The notes under the pieces were generated by a model. The model searched no databases, was not told the origin of the DNA, and saw only the letters and a list, made by a program, of their open reading frames with translations. Positions 1,369-17,181 of a DNA stretch of 42,130 nt are shown here, in pieces. The number at the start of each line of letters is the position of its first letter. The first letter of the stretch is position 1. The position numbers were made by a program, and so were the translations under genes. The DNA comes from a virus (lineage: Duplodnaviria; Heunggongvirae; Uroviricota; Caudoviricetes), in the IMG/VR virus record IMGVR_UViG_2917398303_000001. One strand, 5' to 3'.

Positions 1369-1444
1369 GCCGATATAGCTCAGTTGGTAGAGCAGCGCAT
1401 TCGTAATGCGAAGGTCGTAGGTTCGACTCCTATTATCGGCACCA
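1369..1444 (+). tRNA. thrW: tRNA-Thr (anticodon CGU), prophage integration target
   Basis: 76-nt sequence GCCGATATAGCTCAGTTGG...GGTTCGACTCCTATTATCGGCACCA with D-loop, anticodon loop containing CGT, T-loop GGTTCGA and 3' CCA; integrase gene starts 15 nt downstream. Confidence 0.9.
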
Positions 1445-1458
1445 TTTAAATCAATAAG

Positions 1459-2622
1459 TTACACATCATTAGTACCTTCCTTATTTTTTGACTGGGACAA
1501 ATTTGGGACCGATGGGTTCAGAATCGAGTCTATTTGCCGTGCGTGTTCGGTAAGGTGATTAGGCGCGAGGTGAGCATATCGACGAACCATTTCGATAGAC
1601 TCCCAGCCACCCATTTCCTGTAACACTGACAACGGGACTCCGGCTTGAACCAGCCAACTTGCCCAGGTGTGTCTCAAGTCGTGAAATCTGAAATCATCAA
1701 TACCAGCTCGTCTCAGCGCCGCTTTCCAGGCTGTGTTTGCGTCATACCGCATCTTCCTTACTGTTGGCGCTTTCGTTCCGTCTGGTTTGGTACAGCTTTC
1801 CTTATACACAAATACCCAACGGTGATGATTCCCTATTTGTTTTTTCAATACGCGACATGCAGTATCATTCAGCGCAACGCCAATTGCGCGGTTTGATTTA
1901 CTCTCTTCCGGGTTTATCCATGCCACCCGGCGCTGCATGTCTATTTGTTGCCATTCAAGGTTGATGATGTTCGAGCGTCTTAAACCTGTTGCCAGTGCAA
2001 ATTCAACAACAGACTTTAATGGCTCCGGACATTCATCAATCAGCCTTTGTGCTTCATGAGGCTCCAGCCAGCGGATCCGTTTATTCTTTGGTTGAGGCAC
2101 TTTAATAATTGGTGCCTTATCCAGCATTTTCCATTCACGCTCTGCGGCTCTTAGCAGGGCCTTTATAAATGAAAGATGCGTTGCCTTCGTTGCAACGGAC
2201 GCTGGTTTTGGCGTGTATTCTGGAACAGGTTTCCCTTTTTTTCTGCATGCTTCTGCCCTGAGTTTCCAGTTTTCCTCATGACGCCGGTTCGTCATTTTCT
2301 GAATTGCTGAATAAATTTTTGATTCAGTAATGTCTCTTAGTTGCATCCCTGCGAAATGTTGAAGCCAGAATCCGATCCGGCTTTTGTCATCGTCCAGTGA
2401 TTTTTTATGTGCTTTCTCTTCAAGCCACCTGACACACGCTTCCTCGAACGTCATATCAGGTATTTCACCAAGTTTGCTGACCCGCCATGCTTCAGCCTTT
2501 AGCTTGTCATGGAGCTCTGTTGCCTGCCTTTTGTCCTTTGTTCCAAGAGACTGTTTAAATCTTTTACCGTTCGGCAATGTGAAACTGGCGTACCATATTT
2601 CACTTCTGCGGAAGAGTGACAT
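1459..2622 (-). CDS. int: tyrosine-type phage integrase (P4-like family)
   Basis: 387-aa ORF next to the tRNA; C-terminal catalytic motifs ([15 protein letters not shown] ... VRRYAHL) typical of tyrosine recombinases; RBS AGAGGA upstream of the ATG. Confidence 0.9.
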
Positions 2623-5410: not shown

Positions 5411-6192
5411 GCTGCCACCTTCTGCTCAGTGGCTTTTTGTTTCAGGAATCCAAGAGCTTTCACTGCTTCGGCCTGTGTCAATTCTGACGATGCACGAATG
5501 TCGCGGCGAAATATCTGGGAACAGAGCGGCAATAAGTCGCCATCCCATGTTTTATCCAGGGCGATCAGCAGAGTGTTAATCTCCTGCATGGTTTCATCGT
5601 TAACCGGAGTGATGTCGCGTTCCGGCTGACGTTCTGCAGTGTATGCGGTATTTTCGACAATGCGCTCGGCTTCATCCTTGTCATAGATACCCGCAAATCC
5701 GAAGGCCAGACGGGCACACTGAATCATGGCTTTATGCCGTAACATCCGTTTGGGATGCGACTGCCACGGCCCCGTGATTTCTCTGCCTTCGCGGGTTTTG
5801 AATGGTTCGCGGCGGCATTCATCCATCCACTCGGTAACGCAGATCGGATGATTACGGTCCTTGCGGTAAATCCGGCATGTACAGAATTCGTTGTCCTGCT
5901 CAAAGTCCATGCCATCAAACTGCTGGTTTTCATTGATGATGCGGGACCAGCCATCAACGCCCACCACCGGAACGATGCCGTTCTGCTTATCAGGAAAGGC
6001 GTAAATTTCTTTCGTCCACGGATTAAGACCGTACTGGTTGGCGACGATCAGCAATGCGATGAACTGCGCATCGCTGGCATCACCTTTAAATGCCGTCTGG
6101 CGAAGAGTGGTGATCAGTTCCTGTGGGTCGACAGAATCCATGCCGACACGTTCAGCCAGCTTCCCTGCCAGCGTTGCGAGTGCAGTACTCAT
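5407..6192 (-). CDS. bet: Red beta single-strand annealing protein
   Basis: 261-aa ORF matching lambda Bet ([72 protein letters not shown]...); overlaps the exo start. Confidence 0.97.
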
Positions 6193-7638: not shown

Positions 7639-8108
7639 TAGTGAATATGCTTCGCCATATCCTCATGAGAAATGGGGCCACCATCTGCACTTCCCTTGCT
7701 CCATGCTGTACCAGGCGCATGTGTTAAGTTAGACAGTTCGGTACCTGAAAATTTCCCATATACTTCGATGATTTTATTGATAAGAGCTTGAGCTTCTTGA
7801 TCATCTTTTTGAATTGTAGGGGTGATTCTTTTTAATTCGCCATCACACTCTAAGATGACGCTAATCTTTTCAGTGATTTCGTTTGCTCCATACTTCTTCA
7901 ACATATGATAAAGCGGTGGAATAACAGGCCCGAATTTCCATCTGGCGAAAAGATCATCAAAAAGCGGTGTGTTGTCGCGTAACTTTAAATGCCATGATTG
8001 AGTATAAAAAAGAAGCTTCTGGAGCTTCATTGGAGTCAGATTCTTTAACTTACCCTTTAAAGCCTTTTCAATGAAGGCATTAGCAACCGCTGCAGCTGAG
8101 TAAGCCAT
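7638..8108 (-). CDS. Panacea-domain (DUF4065) protein, candidate antitoxin (PanA/SocA-like)
   Basis: 156-aa ORF with strong RBS AAGGAGGG; N-terminal region AAAVANAFIEKA...LKNLTPMKLQKLLFYTQSWHLKL...GPVIPPLY matches the conserved core of DUF4065/Panacea proteins as I recall it. Confidence 0.55.
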   Translation of the reverse strand: MAYSAAAVANAFIEKALKGKLKNLTPMKLQKLLFYTQSWHLKLRDNTPLFDDLFARWKFGPVIPPLYHMLKKYGANEITEKISVILECDGELKRITPTIQKDDQEAQALINKIIEVYGKFSGTELSNLTHAPGTAWSKGSADGGPISHEDMAKHIH

Positions 8109-8397
8109 GTTATGCCCTCCTTAACTGTATAAATAACCAGTTGTATAATGCTTGCATTTTACCTGAAAGGTAACTGTTAGTACATATTAATAACTTTATG
8201 TACATCCGTCACTTACAAAACGATAGGATTTATTGCTGTTTATCCTTATTAGGTAGCATATTATTCTGGTAAGGGGTGCTGGAAAGTTGTTTACTATATA
8301 TAGTGGTAGGGTGGCATAATTCAATACAACATAAAGTGTCATGGCGAGAGCTCTGGCTATCGCCATCATTAATATTGTCTATTATGTAGACATGGGA

Positions 8398-9090
8398 TTA
8401 ACCATGTTTCCTATACGTCTGCGGCATGCTCCCAATAACCTTACCGAAGATGAATACCCGGTTCATCTCGTCTTTCTCGATCGGGTCCCACGGTGAGTAG
8501 CTTTTGTTATCAGAGATGACCAGTAGCTTATCCTTCATCATTTGCAGGCGCTTTACATGGGCTGTGTCGTCATACAGAAACGCATAGATACCATCACCGT
8601 CGAAAGATTTAACCGTGATATCAACGAACAGCAGATCACCTGGTTCGATAGTTCCTGACATGCTGTCACCACGCACGTTAATGATGCGGATATTTTCCGC
8701 CTTCCTGCCATCGAACATGTGACGAGCATCGTCAAACGAGTACTCAACCGAGCGTAGGACTTCTACAAACTCACGGTTGATGACACCCGGCCCGGCACTG
8801 ACTTCTATATCAAGAACGTCAATCTTGAAGTATTTGGAATGGTTGACAGCAGGCTTCCCTGATTGTTGACCGTCATTTCTCATCGGGCCTATGCCTGATG
8901 AGAGCCACTCTGTTCGAACACCCAATGCATTAGCTATTTCAACAATTTTTGTTGAGCCGCGCGCGTTGCCGCTTGTCAGTCTCCAGATTGTGGGTTGAGC
9001 TACGCCAGACGCCTTTGCAAGAGCGCCTTGAGACATTCCAGATTGTTCCATCGCTAGGTTTAAGCGATCAGCAAGAGTTTCTTTTTTCAT
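8398..9090 (-). CDS. cI: CI-like prophage repressor (HTH plus S24 LexA-like peptidase domain)
   Basis: 231 aa from ATG at 9090 (the track ORF begins at an upstream TTG); N-terminal HTH (MSQGALAKASGVAQPTIWRL) and C-terminal S24 autopeptidase motifs (NVRGDSMSGTIEPGDLLFVD ... HVKRL); divergently oriented to cro. Confidence 0.85.
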   Translation of the reverse strand: MKKETLADRLNLAMEQSGMSQGALAKASGVAQPTIWRLTSGNARGSTKIVEIANALGVRTEWLSSGIGPMRNDGQQSGKPAVNHSKYFKIDVLDIEVSAGPGVINREFVEVLRSVEYSFDDARHMFDGRKAENIRIINVRGDSMSGTIEPGDLLFVDITVKSFDGDGIYAFLYDDTAHVKRLQMMKDKLLVISDNKSYSPWDPIEKDEMNRVFIFGKVIGSMPQTYRKHG

Positions 9091-11712: not shown

Positions 11713-12002
11713 CGGGAAAAGAAGCAATTATTCATTACCTGGGGACGCATAAGAGCTTCTGTGCGCAGGACGTTGCTGCGGTAACAGGCGCAACAGTAAC
11801 CAGCATAAATCAGGCTGCGGCTAAAATGGCGCGGACAGGAATCTTAGTCATTGATGGTAAGGTCTGGCGAACGGTGTATTACCGGTTCGCTACCAGGGAA
11901 GAACGGGAAGGAAAGGTGAGCACGAATCTGATTTTCAAGGAGTGTCGCCAGAGTGCCGCGATGAAGCGGGTGTTGGCATTTTATCGCGGCAATTTTCAAT
12001 AG
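11709..12002 (+). CDS. ren: Ren (rex-exclusion resistance)
   Basis: 97-aa ORF matching lambda Ren (MTGKEAIIHYLGTH...GKVWRTVYYRFATREEREGK...). Confidence 0.9.
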   Translation: MTGKEAIIHYLGTHKSFCAQDVAAVTGATVTSINQAAAKMARTGILVIDGKVWRTVYYRFATREEREGKVSTNLIFKECRQSAAMKRVLAFYRGNFQ

Positions 12003-12039
12003 ACTATGTACATAAAAATATCATTTTTTTAATACATGT

Positions 12040-12231
12040 CTAATTATTGGACGAAATTGGTTTTTGCTTTGGTTTAGTTAGCCTAGCAATCAAGCCAGAG
12101 GCAATAATGATGATCCAAGCAATTTGATGCAATGCTACTCCAATATAAGAACCTTTATAGATAATAAAGGCATAGATCGCTAGAAACGAAATAAATATCC
12201 ATAACGAAAGTTGATAAATTTTGGCGCGCAT
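12040..12231 (-). CDS. small hydrophobic protein (63 aa, 2 predicted TM helices)
   Basis: ATG at 12231; two hydrophobic segments; lies in an AT-rich island; no RBS or homology verified. Confidence 0.3.
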   Translation of the reverse strand: MRAKIYQLSLWIFISFLAIYAFIIYKGSYIGVALHQIAWIIIIASGLIARLTKPKQKPISSNN

Positions 12232-12487
12232 ATTTAATCCAATCAATCAGAAAGACGAGTAATCATAGAGGTACTATCACCCGGGTAACTATTGCTATTA
12301 TGAACGGATAGGATAGAGGCTTCAATAACATATGCATCAAGTATGATGGAATATGTAGATGAAAATGACTTGTGTCAAATTTGTGGAAATGAGTACCATG
12401 TTTCTCTGAAATTGATGTCGTTAATGGCTAGTGATAGTGAACTTTTTTACTTTATAATTCCTTTGGTTATAACAATAAGGTAAATTT

Positions 12488-13048
12488 ATGAAGAAGATAA
12501 TATTATTAGCCATGATTATTGGTTCTTTAACAGGTTGCGCTAGTGTGCCACCATTGAATTTTTCAACACCTAACGTGGGAGTTAGCCAGAAAAAAATAGA
12601 TGCTGAAATTAAGTCATTAACGGTATCACTTGCTCGTCCAGATGAGCAGAAAGGGGATATCACTGCTGGTATGGAGGCTATAACTCCAATTTGGCGTGAA
12701 TCTTTGCAGGAAGCACTCGACCGAATGACTATTTTTCGTGATAGTTCACCAAATACGGTTAGCTTAAATGTTAAAGTGTTGGCTCTTGACGTTCCTGCTT
12801 TTGGTGTTTCAATGACAACTAAAGCAATTGCAAGGTATGAAATAATCAACCGTGCGAATGGTGATATTATATATACGCAGGATATTGAGTCTACCGGTAC
12901 TGTTCCAGCCAGTTACGCATTCTACGGTATTGTTCGAGCACGCGAATCTGTTAATCGCGCGGTGCAAAACAACATAACGCAGTTCTTGCAAGCATTAGAA
13001 AGTGTTGATCTTTCTCGTCCAATGTTTCCTGTTAGGGTAGCTAAATGA
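12488..13048 (+). CDS. lipoprotein (186 aa), unknown function
   Basis: Signal peptide with lipobox MKKIILLAMIIGSLTGC; AT-rich codon usage unlike flanking phage genes. Confidence 0.7.
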   Translation: MKKIILLAMIIGSLTGCASVPPLNFSTPNVGVSQKKIDAEIKSLTVSLARPDEQKGDITAGMEAITPIWRESLQEALDRMTIFRDSSPNTVSLNVKVLALDVPAFGVSMTTKAIARYEIINRANGDIIYTQDIESTGTVPASYAFYGIVRARESVNRAVQNNITQFLQALESVDLSRPMFPVRVAK

Positions 13049-13497
13049 AGCGATTATTCGTAATTGCTCCACTCTTAGTGTTGGTTGGATGCGCACAAAA
13101 TATATCGCCAAATAGTTATTCTGTTGGCTCTGTGGGCATGGTTAATCGAACTATCGCTGGTACAGTTATTAGTGCCAGGGGGGTTGATATCAGTGGGACT
13201 TCCGCGTTAGGCGGGACTGCTGGGGCTGCCGTGGGGGCAACCGCTGGTTCTGCGCTTGGTGGGGGAGTTCGTTCTAATATCGTTGGTGCCGTTGGTGGTG
13301 CAGTCATTGGTGGTATTGCCGGGGCAGCAATCGAATCTTCAGCAACAAAACAAACAGGCATGGAATATGTTGTCGAAACTGAGAATGGGAATTTAATGAC
13401 CATTGTTCAAGGCAAAGAGCCGTTATTTACTCAAGGAAGTAAGGTCCTTGTTTTATACGGAAACCCTTCTCGCATAATAACAGACCCGCGTCACTAA
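13045..13497 (+). CDS. SlyB-like glycine-zipper outer-membrane lipoprotein
   Basis: Lipobox LLVLVGC; central Gly/Ala-zipper (GGTAGAAVGATAGSALGGGVRSNIVGAVGGAVIGGIAGAAI); C-terminal segment resembles E. coli SlyB; overlaps the upstream lipoprotein stop. Confidence 0.7.
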   Translation: MKRLFVIAPLLVLVGCAQNISPNSYSVGSVGMVNRTIAGTVISARGVDISGTSALGGTAGAAVGATAGSALGGGVRSNIVGAVGGAVIGGIAGAAIESSATKQTGMEYVVETENGNLMTIVQGKEPLFTQGSKVLVLYGNPSRIITDPRH

Positions 13498-13687
13498 CAT
13501 ACCTTTTGATTTTGTAAAATCAATTCGTAATAATAAAGTCATCGGAGCTTGAACAACTCCGGTGACTTCTGCGCTAAACGGGGACGTTTATGCGCGCATA
13601 CAATCCAAACTCTCTTCTACCGTCACAGATGCAGAAATGCACCTGTGGTTCTTTGCATCCAACGTTTGACCTCTGCGGAGGTGAAGC

Positions 13688-15924: not shown

Positions 15925-15955
15925 ATAATTTTCGCCGAAGATATCGACATGATGC

Positions 15956-15990
15956 TTGCATTTTTCAAAAAATATGGATAGGATTTTCTC
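15956..15990 (+). promoter_or_regulatory. candidate late promoter PR' (Q-dependent)
   Basis: TTGCAT (15956-15961), 17-nt spacer, TAGGAT (15979-15984), immediately downstream of Q and upstream of a terminator. Confidence 0.45.
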
Positions 15991-16031
15991 AACGATGGGC
16001 TTTGTATGTCCGGTGTTGAGAAAAAGTAGAA

Positions 16032-16058
16032 AACCCGCTAATGAGCGGGTTTTTGTGT
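16032..16058 (+). terminator. tR'-like intrinsic terminator
   Basis: Stem ACCCGC / GCGGGT with loop TAATGA, then TTTTTGTGTTTT. Confidence 0.7.
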
Positions 16059-16292
16059 TTTAAATGGGGAGGTGGCTGGATGTCTAAAATAAACATTGCT
16101 TCCAAGTGTACAACTATGCGTTAATGGCTGCGTCGGTTTGAAGAACAGACGATATACGAAGTAGTTTACTAAAGCAGTTCTCATTTCAGGTGTTATTCAC
16201 TTATTCCTTCTTTGAGTCTCTCCAATTAAGTACGAAGTCGTTTCTGTTATACAAATCATTTATGCCGAAAGGCTCAAGTTAAGGAATGTAGA

Positions 16293-16508
16293 ATGTCAAA
16301 TAAAATGACTGGTTTAGTAAAATGGTTTAACGCTGATAAAGGTTTTGGCTTTATTTCTCCTGTTGATGGTAGTAAAGATGTGTTTGTGCATTTTTCTGCA
16401 ATTCAGAATGATAATTATCGAACCTTATTTGAAGGCCAAAAGGTTACCTTCTCTGTAGAGAGTGGTGCTAAAGGTCCTGCAGCAGCAAATGTCATTATTA
16501 CTGATTAA
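16293..16508 (+). CDS. CspA-family cold-shock protein
   Basis: 71-aa ORF with RNP motifs ([12 protein letters not shown]; VFVHFSAI); about 230-nt upstream leader, as is usual for csp genes. Confidence 0.9.
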
Positions 16509-16708
16509 AATTCATAGCTTGTCTGTATACGATAACGAAGAAGGCTGATGCCTGAGTAGAGATGCAGATAGAGTTGTGGGTATTGAATCCCATTTTGTGG
16601 TGAAGTGCAGGTTTGCTGCATGAATAGTTTTACAGTAGAAGCTAACTGCTGGCATAGCAATACAAAGTGCGTAAGTGGGTAACTACCACAAAAAGCACCA
16701 CAATCTCA

Positions 16709-16731
16709 AACCCGCGCAGGCGGGTTTTTTA
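16709..16731 (+). terminator. intrinsic terminator downstream of csp
   Basis: Stem CCCGC / GCGGG with loop GCAG, followed by TTTTTT. Confidence 0.6.
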
Positions 16732-16789
16732 TTATCTGATTTAAATATATTATTAAAATATAAAAACTCTTTGTAAGTAATCAAAACAC

Positions 16790-16960
16790 TCAGGCAACAG
16801 CTTTAAGATTTGTTTGGAATACTTTGTTGCAATGAGGGCAGATCAAAAGGGCACCTTTTTGTACTCTAGAAAAACTGTGTTCTGATTCTTGGGTACAGTG
16901 TGGGCAGGAACATTTTACGAGATAATTACGGCGTGATTTTGAGTCTTTACGTTCTGACAT
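16790..16960 (-). CDS. small zinc-ribbon protein (56 aa)
   Basis: Hand-translated: MSERKDSKSRRNYLVKCSCPHCTQESEHSFSRVQKGALLICPHCNKVFQTNLKAVA, with two CxxC pairs; below track cutoff. Confidence 0.35.
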   Translation of the reverse strand: MSERKDSKSRRNYLVKCSCPHCTQESEHSFSRVQKGALLICPHCNKVFQTNLKAVA

Positions 16961-17181
16961 AGGCTTTTCCTGTATAAATGGCCGTATACATTACACTAAA
17001 TAGAAAAATATATCCCGCATTATTATTTAATAGATGGTTTTTCTTTTAAAATATTTAACCACATTATTTTAATTTTCTGTTTTTTGAGCGTCGTTGAGAA
17101 CAACGTTTGCTGTAAAAACTAACCCGTAGACTCCGATCTTTTCAAACATATTGCACCATCCGTGTACATCGGGGTGAGGAT

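Follow-up and report, generated by a model that had tools for sequence, protein, structure and literature searches.

A mobile cassette of two predicted outer-membrane lipoproteins, one of the SlyB family, in a lambdoid prophage of Escherichia coli

The virus record IMGVR_UViG_2917398303_000001 (42,130 nucleotides; the whole of this stretch is called the window below) is a complete lambda-like prophage of Escherichia coli, in which an AT-rich segment separates ren from the nin region. We find that this segment is a horizontally acquired moron that carries two overlapping genes, here named ORF1 and ORF2, both of which code for predicted outer-membrane lipoproteins. ORF1 belongs to a family without a name and is modelled with the fold of LptE, PqiC and PelC, and ORF2 is a distant SlyB paralogue. 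Together they make up a mobile, self-contained unit coding for two lipoproteins, as indicated by their near-constant pairing, by the lack of a third conserved gene and by the capture of the pair by several prophage backbones. The features of the region are collected in Table 1.

To delimit the insert we compared the region with other lambdoid phages and E. coli prophages. Their match to the query ends at about position 11977, which is 78 nucleotides (nt) into the query and inside the 3′ end of ren, and restarts at about 13501-13505, so that the foreign DNA extends over about 11978-13500. The GC content of this insert is 0.397, compared with 0.515 for the window, and the GC content at third codon positions is 0.30 in ORF1 and 0.35 in ORF2, against 0.53-0.63 in O, P and ninB. 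The insert thus splits genes that are adjacent in related phages and deviates in composition, as is characteristic of a moron. The preliminary description of this DNA, made from the sequence alone, had proposed a moron-type insert between ren and the nin region, which is borne out by the homology breaks and by the deviant GC content. It had also described the interval 12003-13687 as an AT-rich island; the low GC content of this interval was correctly seen (0.404, in the 2nd percentile among stretches of equal length), but its extent has to be corrected, because homology resumes at about 13501 and the last 190 nt (13498-13687) are therefore conserved backbone upstream of ninB, outside the island.

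The region is 99% identical to PhiR30_1 (PV340558), an inducible phage from the E. coli reference collection (ECOR), which is the only one of 50,697 isolated phages to carry the insert. Among 5426 complete E. coli genomes, the whole insert is found at an identity of at least 99% in 280, each time in a single copy and always on the chromosome. About 5% of complete E. coli genomes, including many from clinical isolates, thus carry the cassette. In one E. coli genome (NZ_CP101257.1) the match to the island is cut into two pieces by an IS2 insertion, which shows that this strain can do without the island.

At their N-termini, both proteins have a basic n-region followed by a hydrophobic core and a lipobox (MKKIILLAMIIGSLTG-C17-AS in ORF1 and MKRLFVIAPLLVLVG-C16-AQ in ORF2). 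The lipobox cysteine of ORF1, C17, is the same in all of 66 close homologues and in 53 distant ones, and that of ORF2, C16, is invariant in 60 homologues, in agreement with the earlier assignment of both genes as lipoproteins. According to the classical +2 rule, an alanine at position +2 leads to sorting to the outer membrane. Since both ORF1 and ORF2 have an alanine in this position, an outer-membrane location is expected for both. The signal of ORF2, as read from its sequence (a lipobox cysteine followed by a +2 residue other than aspartate), is also that of the SlyB family.

The relationship of ORF2 to SlyB extends over the full length of the protein. A phmmer search against all PDB chains found SlyB (7ojf_A, of 7OJF/7OJG) with E = 1.6e-14, aligning residues 2-149 with residues 3-155, and a family profile built from 60 members retrieved only SlyB from the PDB (E = 9.3e-15). 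The AlphaFold2 model of ORF2 is of moderate quality (predicted local distance difference test, pLDDT, of 73.8) and comprises a beta strand, two long helices rich in glycine and alanine (residues 55-71 and 75-100) and, C-terminally, a beta domain. When this model was compared with the PDB with Foldseek, the only significant match was again SlyB (7ojf_A, SlyB13-BamA; E = 1.6e-9, probability 1.0, template modelling (TM) score 0.63/0.67). The two helices align with the glycine-zipper helices of SlyB, and their glycine and alanine positions are invariant in the homologues. Sequence match and fold thus both agree with the preliminary description, which had called ORF2 SlyB-like. Among phage protein families, ORF2 matches PHROG 13877, of unknown function.

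ORF1 was assigned to no Pfam or NCBIfam family, and its sole match is a PHROG of unknown function; the earlier statement that its family is unknown therefore holds after a search of the hidden Markov model (HMM) libraries. None of 52 distant members of the family matches Pfam, and the family profile retrieved nothing from the PDB. The family is sizeable, with 512 matches at 90% clustering and, in an exhaustive search, 460 clusters at 50% identity. It has conserved motifs of its own, namely PPLNFSxPNVG, which follows the lipid anchor without a gap, and RARESxNRAVQNNI, located in the last helix. The long homologues were checked for domain fusions and contain only unrelated C-terminal extensions, none of them a fusion to SlyB. 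The confident structural model of ORF1 (pLDDT 85.7, predicted TM score 0.78) has the order beta-alpha-beta-beta-beta-alpha, in which we recognise the alpha/beta lipoprotein fold shared by LptE, PqiC (DUF330) and PelC. ORF1 is placed in this class by its modelled fold, not by its sequence: it does not match the family HMMs of LptE, PqiC or PelC and has no lptD, pqiAB or pelB neighbours. Against viral structures (BFVD) the fold gave no meaningful match, with a TM score of at most 0.37. Lipoproteins of the LptE/PqiC/PelC fold plug, cap or ring outer-membrane assemblies, or bind envelope glycolipids, and one paper on TraT states this point for the LptE-like core.

The public labels of ORF1 homologues are misleading. 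Most are called "UDP-N-acetylglucosamine acyltransferase" in NCBI and UniRef, and one is called "YajG family lipoprotein". The first label would make the protein an LpxA, which can be rejected since there is no match to the hexapeptide or LpxA families, the protein has a lipoprotein signal peptide and its modelled fold is the one given above. The LpxA label of the family (for example in members P0001, P0003, P0021 and P0041) is a propagated misannotation, widely spread, which is corrected here. The YajG assignment was also rejected, as no YajG model of NCBIfam or Pfam was matched at E values up to 0.1.

The start of ORF2 overlaps the stop of ORF1 by 4 nt (ATGA), an overlap already remarked on in the preliminary description. 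Overlap or near-abutment of the pair also occurs in Klebsiella oxytoca, Edaphovirga, Bordetella and other loci (according to the gene tables for Bordetella and K. oxytoca). We surveyed the cassette with one genome per species, which gave 76 loci with an ORF1 relative. In about 69 of these, tblastn detected an ORF2 homologue directly downstream, on the same strand and starting within a few to about 100 nt of the end of ORF1. This pairing across many bacteria, the central finding here, had escaped the preliminary description. The hosts include Gammaproteobacteria (K. oxytoca, Serratia, Edaphovirga, Xanthomonas, Stenotrophomonas and Luteimonas) and Betaproteobacteria (Bordetella, Comamonas, Cupriavidus, Massilia and others), as well as Alphaproteobacteria, Chthoniobacteraceae and one metagenome-assembled genome of Desulfobulbaceae. 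Members of the family are most abundant in Xanthomonadales and Burkholderiales.

The pairwise identities of ORF1 and of ORF2 co-vary (r = 0.85, n = 85 unique pairs), which indicates that the two genes have been inherited and transferred together. Across classes, from E. coli to Xanthomonadales and Burkholderiales, identities are 60-84% for ORF1 and 51-75% for ORF2, and, to judge from hundreds of diverged homologues, purifying selection evidently acts on both proteins. There is no conserved third gene: all-against-all clustering of the flanking open reading frames returned only the two families and their antisense shadow frames, and when 150 immediately flanking genes, taken from 38 diverse loci, were assigned to Pfam, 168 families were found, none of them in more than three loci. 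Most copies of the cassette are chromosomal and lie in ordinary, variable contexts.

The pair has also been captured by prophages more than once. In IMG/VR, 38 viral contigs contain an ORF1 relative, 22 of them with the E. coli island and 16 diverged. Of the island contigs, 21 have a complete ORF1 that is 99-100% identical, and the remaining one (L121) has only the 3′ end of the gene. In the E. coli lambdoids, the pair is located between ren and ninB. In three enterobacterial viral contigs (L105-L107; GC content 0.52-0.53, 72-73% identical) it is found between the tape-measure and the minor-tail/J genes, and in a Xanthomonas-type contig (L110; GC content 0.66), nearly identical to a locus of Xanthomonas melonis, between the primase gene and the portal, protease and major-capsid genes. 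These three insertion positions, in different backbones, imply at least three independent acquisitions by prophages. Among 72,556 plasmids no close homologue was found. A further phage locus, at 8001-8851 of the low-GC prophage contig L117 (GC content 0.39), has an ORF1 homologue (60% identical) beside a ninB homologue and has no SlyB-like gene; there, a 95-residue protein with a signal peptide follows the ORF1 homologue and may be an alternative partner.

What the cassette does can be approached from SlyB. SlyB forms disc-like rings of 11-13 subunits, whose glycine-zipper hairpins enclose patches of phospholipid and lipopolysaccharide, or outer-membrane proteins, upon damage to the outer leaflet, and it supports tolerance of detergent/ethylenediaminetetraacetic acid and of polymyxin, as well as virulence (bioRxiv 10.64898/2025.12.22.696046, 10.64898/2026.06.08.730324). 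By analogy, we propose that ORF2 forms rings of the SlyB type, that ORF1 is their dedicated partner, and that the two make the envelope of the lysogen sturdier, a proposal for and against which we see the chances as about evenly balanced. The lipid-anchored ORF2 would insert its glycine-zipper hairpin in the outer membrane and assemble into rings, while ORF1, made stoichiometrically from the same message through translational coupling, would act on the ring as co-assembly factor, cap or cargo, so that the two would build a stress-buffering outer-membrane structure. Expressed in the lysogen from its own promoter, the cassette would raise the robustness of the envelope towards challenges such as cation depletion, detergents or bile, antimicrobial peptides and serum, which would be a lysogenic conversion of benefit to both host and prophage. 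Outer-membrane localisation, ring formation, contact between ORF1 and ORF2, expression in the lysogen and an envelope-protective phenotype are all inferred. The strict pairing, the co-divergence, the lack of any other conserved neighbour and the very high conservation across classes speak for an envelope function that is self-contained or universally targeted, rather than receptor-specific, and the conservation in itself suggests that the target is conserved or that the assembly is self-contained.

A more specific architecture, which we hold to be quite improbable, is that ORF1 and ORF2 make up one hetero-oligomeric ring, in which a helical palisade of ORF2 is capped or lined by a ring of ORF1 with its LptE fold. 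Such a ring would correspond to the TraT architecture, but encoded by two genes, and would represent an unrecognised, widespread class of alpha-helical outer-membrane complexes, repeatedly co-opted by prophages against incoming phages or conjugative DNA, or for complement resistance.

Several observations weigh against the proposal that the cassette is an envelope-strengthening SlyB-type module. At residues 55-103, ORF2 does not reach the Pfam gathering scores for glycine-zipper domains, with 21.1 bits against a cut-off of 24.2 for PF05433 and 16.9 against 25 for PF13488. The check with glycine-zipper HMMs suggested in the preliminary description thus gives the matches but not scores above the cut-off, so that the relationship to SlyB rests on the direct comparison with SlyB instead. 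The shortfall reflects a borderline score and not the absence of the domain, because many close homologues carry PF13488 or PF05433. ORF2 is only about 35% identical to E. coli SlyB; the Yersinia SlyB orthologue and paralogues are 62-75% identical to SlyB. A search for a PhoP box with up to two mismatches in 12247-12487, upstream of ORF1, found none, and ORF2 is therefore not regulated like canonical slyB. Together with the prophage locus between ren and ninB, these last two observations led us to reject ORF2 as a canonical slyB orthologue of the PhoPQ regulon; it is best described, from its sequence, as a distant SlyB paralogue, neither an orthologue nor a second copy of slyB. The pairing also has exceptions, as ORF1 relatives without a SlyB-like partner occur in Photorhabdus, Budvicia, a few metagenome-assembled genomes and the phage loci L117-L120, which means that ORF1 does not need an ORF2 dedicated to it in order to act. 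Promoter-like sites are no more numerous in the region than in shuffled sequences. Finally, we found no paper on a prophage-borne SlyB relative or on the ORF1-ORF2 pair, either protein included, which agrees with the earlier remark that a SlyB paralogue had not been characterised in exclusion or serum resistance.

The occurrence of the cassette in at least three unrelated prophage types would also fit superinfection exclusion, and in this respect it counts against an envelope-strengthening role. Here, the SlyB-like ring, aided by ORF1, would encircle or cap outer-membrane proteins that phages use as receptors or injection portals. Cor and Llp are established examples of phage-encoded outer-membrane lipoproteins that block receptors. 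SlyB rings can, moreover, enclose outer-membrane proteins, as in the SlyB13-BamA structure (PDB 7OJF). However, the link to lipoproteins of the Cor, Llp and Bor type drawn in the preliminary description did not survive the comparison: neither protein resembles these or any viral protein of known function in sequence (the only matches being PHROG 12521 and 13877), the fold search of ORF1 matched no viral protein, and neither ORF1 nor ORF2 matched the defence models of PADLOC. In addition, most copies are found on chromosomes, in settings unrelated to one another, and are very conserved between classes whose receptor repertoires differ, unlike fast-evolving, receptor-specific exclusion factors, and carriage among isolated phages is limited to PhiR30_1. 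We therefore consider superinfection exclusion unlikely. Very improbable, in our view, is a TraT-like machine split over two genes, with ORF1 as the core and ORF2 as the helical ring, acting in surface exclusion of conjugation or phage or in complement resistance. Neither protein is related to TraT in sequence, the TraT core is extracellular whereas the soluble domain of SlyB is periplasmic, ORF2 has a C-terminal beta domain of its own, as SlyB does, and the fold of ORF1 is common to many other lipoproteins with higher Z scores.

A comparably small probability is given to immunity against envelope weapons of competitors (bacteriocins, or effectors of type VI (T6SS) or X-type type IV (X-T4SS) secretion systems that act in the periplasm or on the outer membrane), with the pair spreading as an orphan protective cassette. 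Immunity proteins often take the form of lipoproteins that face the periplasm, the richness of the family in Xanthomonadales and Burkholderiales would fit, and PAAR-Tle1 genes are found about 4 kb away from one locus, with toxin-antitoxin genes and transposases near others. However, no effector gene is conserved beside the pair, the sequence conservation is far above the norm for immunity proteins, and ORF2 is clearly a homologue of SlyB, a structural membrane protein. The genes could also be functionless passenger DNA, unexpressed or of no use in E. coli, for which the weak promoter prediction could be cited, and the 280 near-identical E. coli copies may reflect few clonal lineages. This is highly improbable, since both frames are intact in all copies examined, with the start/stop overlap kept, and the purifying selection described above acts across the diverged homologues; independent acquisition by several prophages also suggests selection.

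A mobile cassette that combines a lipoprotein of the LptE fold with a SlyB-like protein seems not to have been described before. SlyB-type glycine-zipper lipoproteins have only lately been recognised as stress-induced outer-membrane scaffolds, and the present data indicate that one clade of them is almost always encoded with a dedicated partner from an unnamed family that is absent from Pfam, and that the pair is transferred as one block between the chromosomes and prophages of Proteobacteria that are only distantly related. If the two proteins form a complex, this would be a new accessory outer-membrane module and would offer a handle on the nucleation, capping and targeting of SlyB-like rings. 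For phage biology, an envelope-fortifying or excluding cassette would join the genes of lysogenic conversion.

With regard to expression signals, an arrangement loosely similar to the promoter-like site upstream of ORF1, (G)TGATAG(G/T)(A/G) followed by a TA-rich stretch, is seen at 12429-12458 in the window (E. coli), at about 7960-7990 in the phage contig L105 and at about 5950-5985 in the Edaphovirga locus L010. This could represent a promoter or a regulator site that the loci share; a shallow alignment of the upstream sequences of five loci gave no convincing conserved operator. Downstream of the cassette, three strong hairpins are predicted in 13498-13600 (-36 kcal/mol, z = -5.66, with none of 200 shuffled sequences as stable). 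The hairpin at 13536-13568 has a 12-bp stem that is not followed by a U-tract, and there is no canonical U-tract in the cluster. This stretch is mostly conserved lambdoid backbone upstream of ninB, and may be a terminator or an antitermination-related element. In phage 82, the homologous region has an annotated regulator-binding site and promoter signals.

The AT-rich insert also contains a small frame on the opposite strand, which the preliminary description had listed as a possible small, divergent membrane frame. The frame is open and has two hydrophobic segments by hydropathy, as had been stated, but its standing as a gene did not gain support. An exact look-up and tblastn found it only inside the E. 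coli island, at an identity of at least 99%, with no homologue elsewhere, and it matches nothing in Pfam, NCBIfam, PHROG or PADLOC. PGAP does not call it, while some other annotators do. The copies differ so little from one another that conservation offers no test of the frame. The frame lies outside the conserved cassette and is unsupported beyond being open.

Elsewhere in the window, the gene content is that of a lambda-like prophage, with a presumed integrase, cI/cro/cII-like genes, O, P, ren, ninB (ybcN), ninE, ybcO, rusA, Q, lysis genes and head and tail genes of the lambda type. The end with the tRNA gene and the presumed integrase is probably the attachment-site side of the prophage. 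A second AT-rich moron is found downstream of the Q antiterminator gene, at 15950-17150. It contains a coding sequence for a 71-residue cold-shock protein (16293-16508) within a cspA element (16132-16524), the cspA thermoregulator of the 5′ untranslated region being complete before the coding sequence (Rfam RF01766, 155.9 bits), and a 56-residue zinc-ribbon-like frame on the minus strand (16790-16960). In K. oxytoca, the lipoprotein pair adjoins a cold-shock-domain gene, which we take to be a coincidence with the cold-shock moron of the window; in Yersinia, slyB paralogue 2 adjoins cspA/cspG.

Table 1 Features of the lipoprotein cassette and its prophage setting (positions in the window)
Feature	Position	Strand	Remarks
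tRNA-Thr(CGT) gene	1369-1444		Left prophage end
387-residue open reading frame	1459-2622	-	Directly adjoins tRNA-Thr(CGT); integrase presumed
Foreign AT-rich insert (moron), about 1.5 kb	11978-13500	.	Flanked by ren and by conserved DNA upstream of ninB/ybcN
63-residue open frame, doubtful gene	12040-12231	-	From ATG; 68 residues from TTG at 12246
Promoter-like site, GTGATA-16-TATAAT	12431-12458	+	30 nt upstream of ORF1; sigma-70-like; 10 of 12 consensus matches
ORF1, 186-residue predicted outer-membrane lipoprotein, LptE/PqiC/PelC-like fold	12488-13048	+	
ORF1 signal peptide and lipobox (L-T-G-C17)	12488-12538	+	Cys17 codon 12536-12538; read from sequence
ORF2, 150-residue SlyB-family glycine-zipper predicted outer-membrane lipoprotein	13045-13497	+	
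ORF2 signal peptide and lipobox (L-V-G-C16)	13045-13092	+	First four bases, ATGA, overlap the ORF1 stop
ORF2 Gly/Ala-rich helical hairpin, putative two-helix membrane insertion	13207-13344	+	Residues about 55-100; from model and SlyB alignment

Among known systems, the closest to ORF2 is SlyB of E. coli and Salmonella (7OJF/7OJG), which is regulated by PhoPQ and with which it shares length, lipobox, N-terminal strand, glycine-zipper hairpin and C-terminal beta domain. Apart from its low identity to SlyB and the lack of a detectable PhoP box, ORF2 differs in being carried by a prophage, rather than lying beside slyA, and in being translationally coupled to a partner lipoprotein, whereas canonical slyB has no partner. 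The E. coli glycine-zipper lipoproteins YfgH, OsmB and YiaD have in common with ORF2 the two-transmembrane glycine-zipper motif and a proposed role in stabilising the outer membrane. The match of ORF2 to YfgH is weak and local, and a parallel with the yfgH-yfgI gene pair was rejected, as the neighbour YfgI, a coiled-coil protein of the DUF5384 type, bears no relation to ORF1. For ORF1, the comparison is with LptE, PqiC (DUF330, XCC0632), PelC and the N-terminal domain of CsgG, from which it is set apart by its own two motifs, by the lack of a profile match in Pfam, NCBIfam or the PDB, and by its surroundings, in which there are no LptD, PqiAB, PelB or curli genes.

Two further systems invite comparison with the cassette as a whole. 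TraT of the F plasmid, which acts in surface exclusion and complement resistance, combines an LptE-like core and a two-helix hairpin in a single chain and forms a decameric outer-membrane ring. It is, however, one surface-exposed polypeptide without sequence similarity to ORF1 or ORF2, and its structural match to ORF2 is not significant. Cor (of phi80, N15 and HK022), Llp (of T5) and Bor (of lambda) are, like the two proteins of the cassette, small accessory lipoproteins encoded by phages and follow the same moron logic. They are expressed from the prophage or early in infection. In contrast to the cassette, to which no similarity in sequence or fold was detected, they are single genes of narrow range, whereas ORF1 and ORF2 make up a two-gene unit that is mostly chromosomal and broadly conserved.

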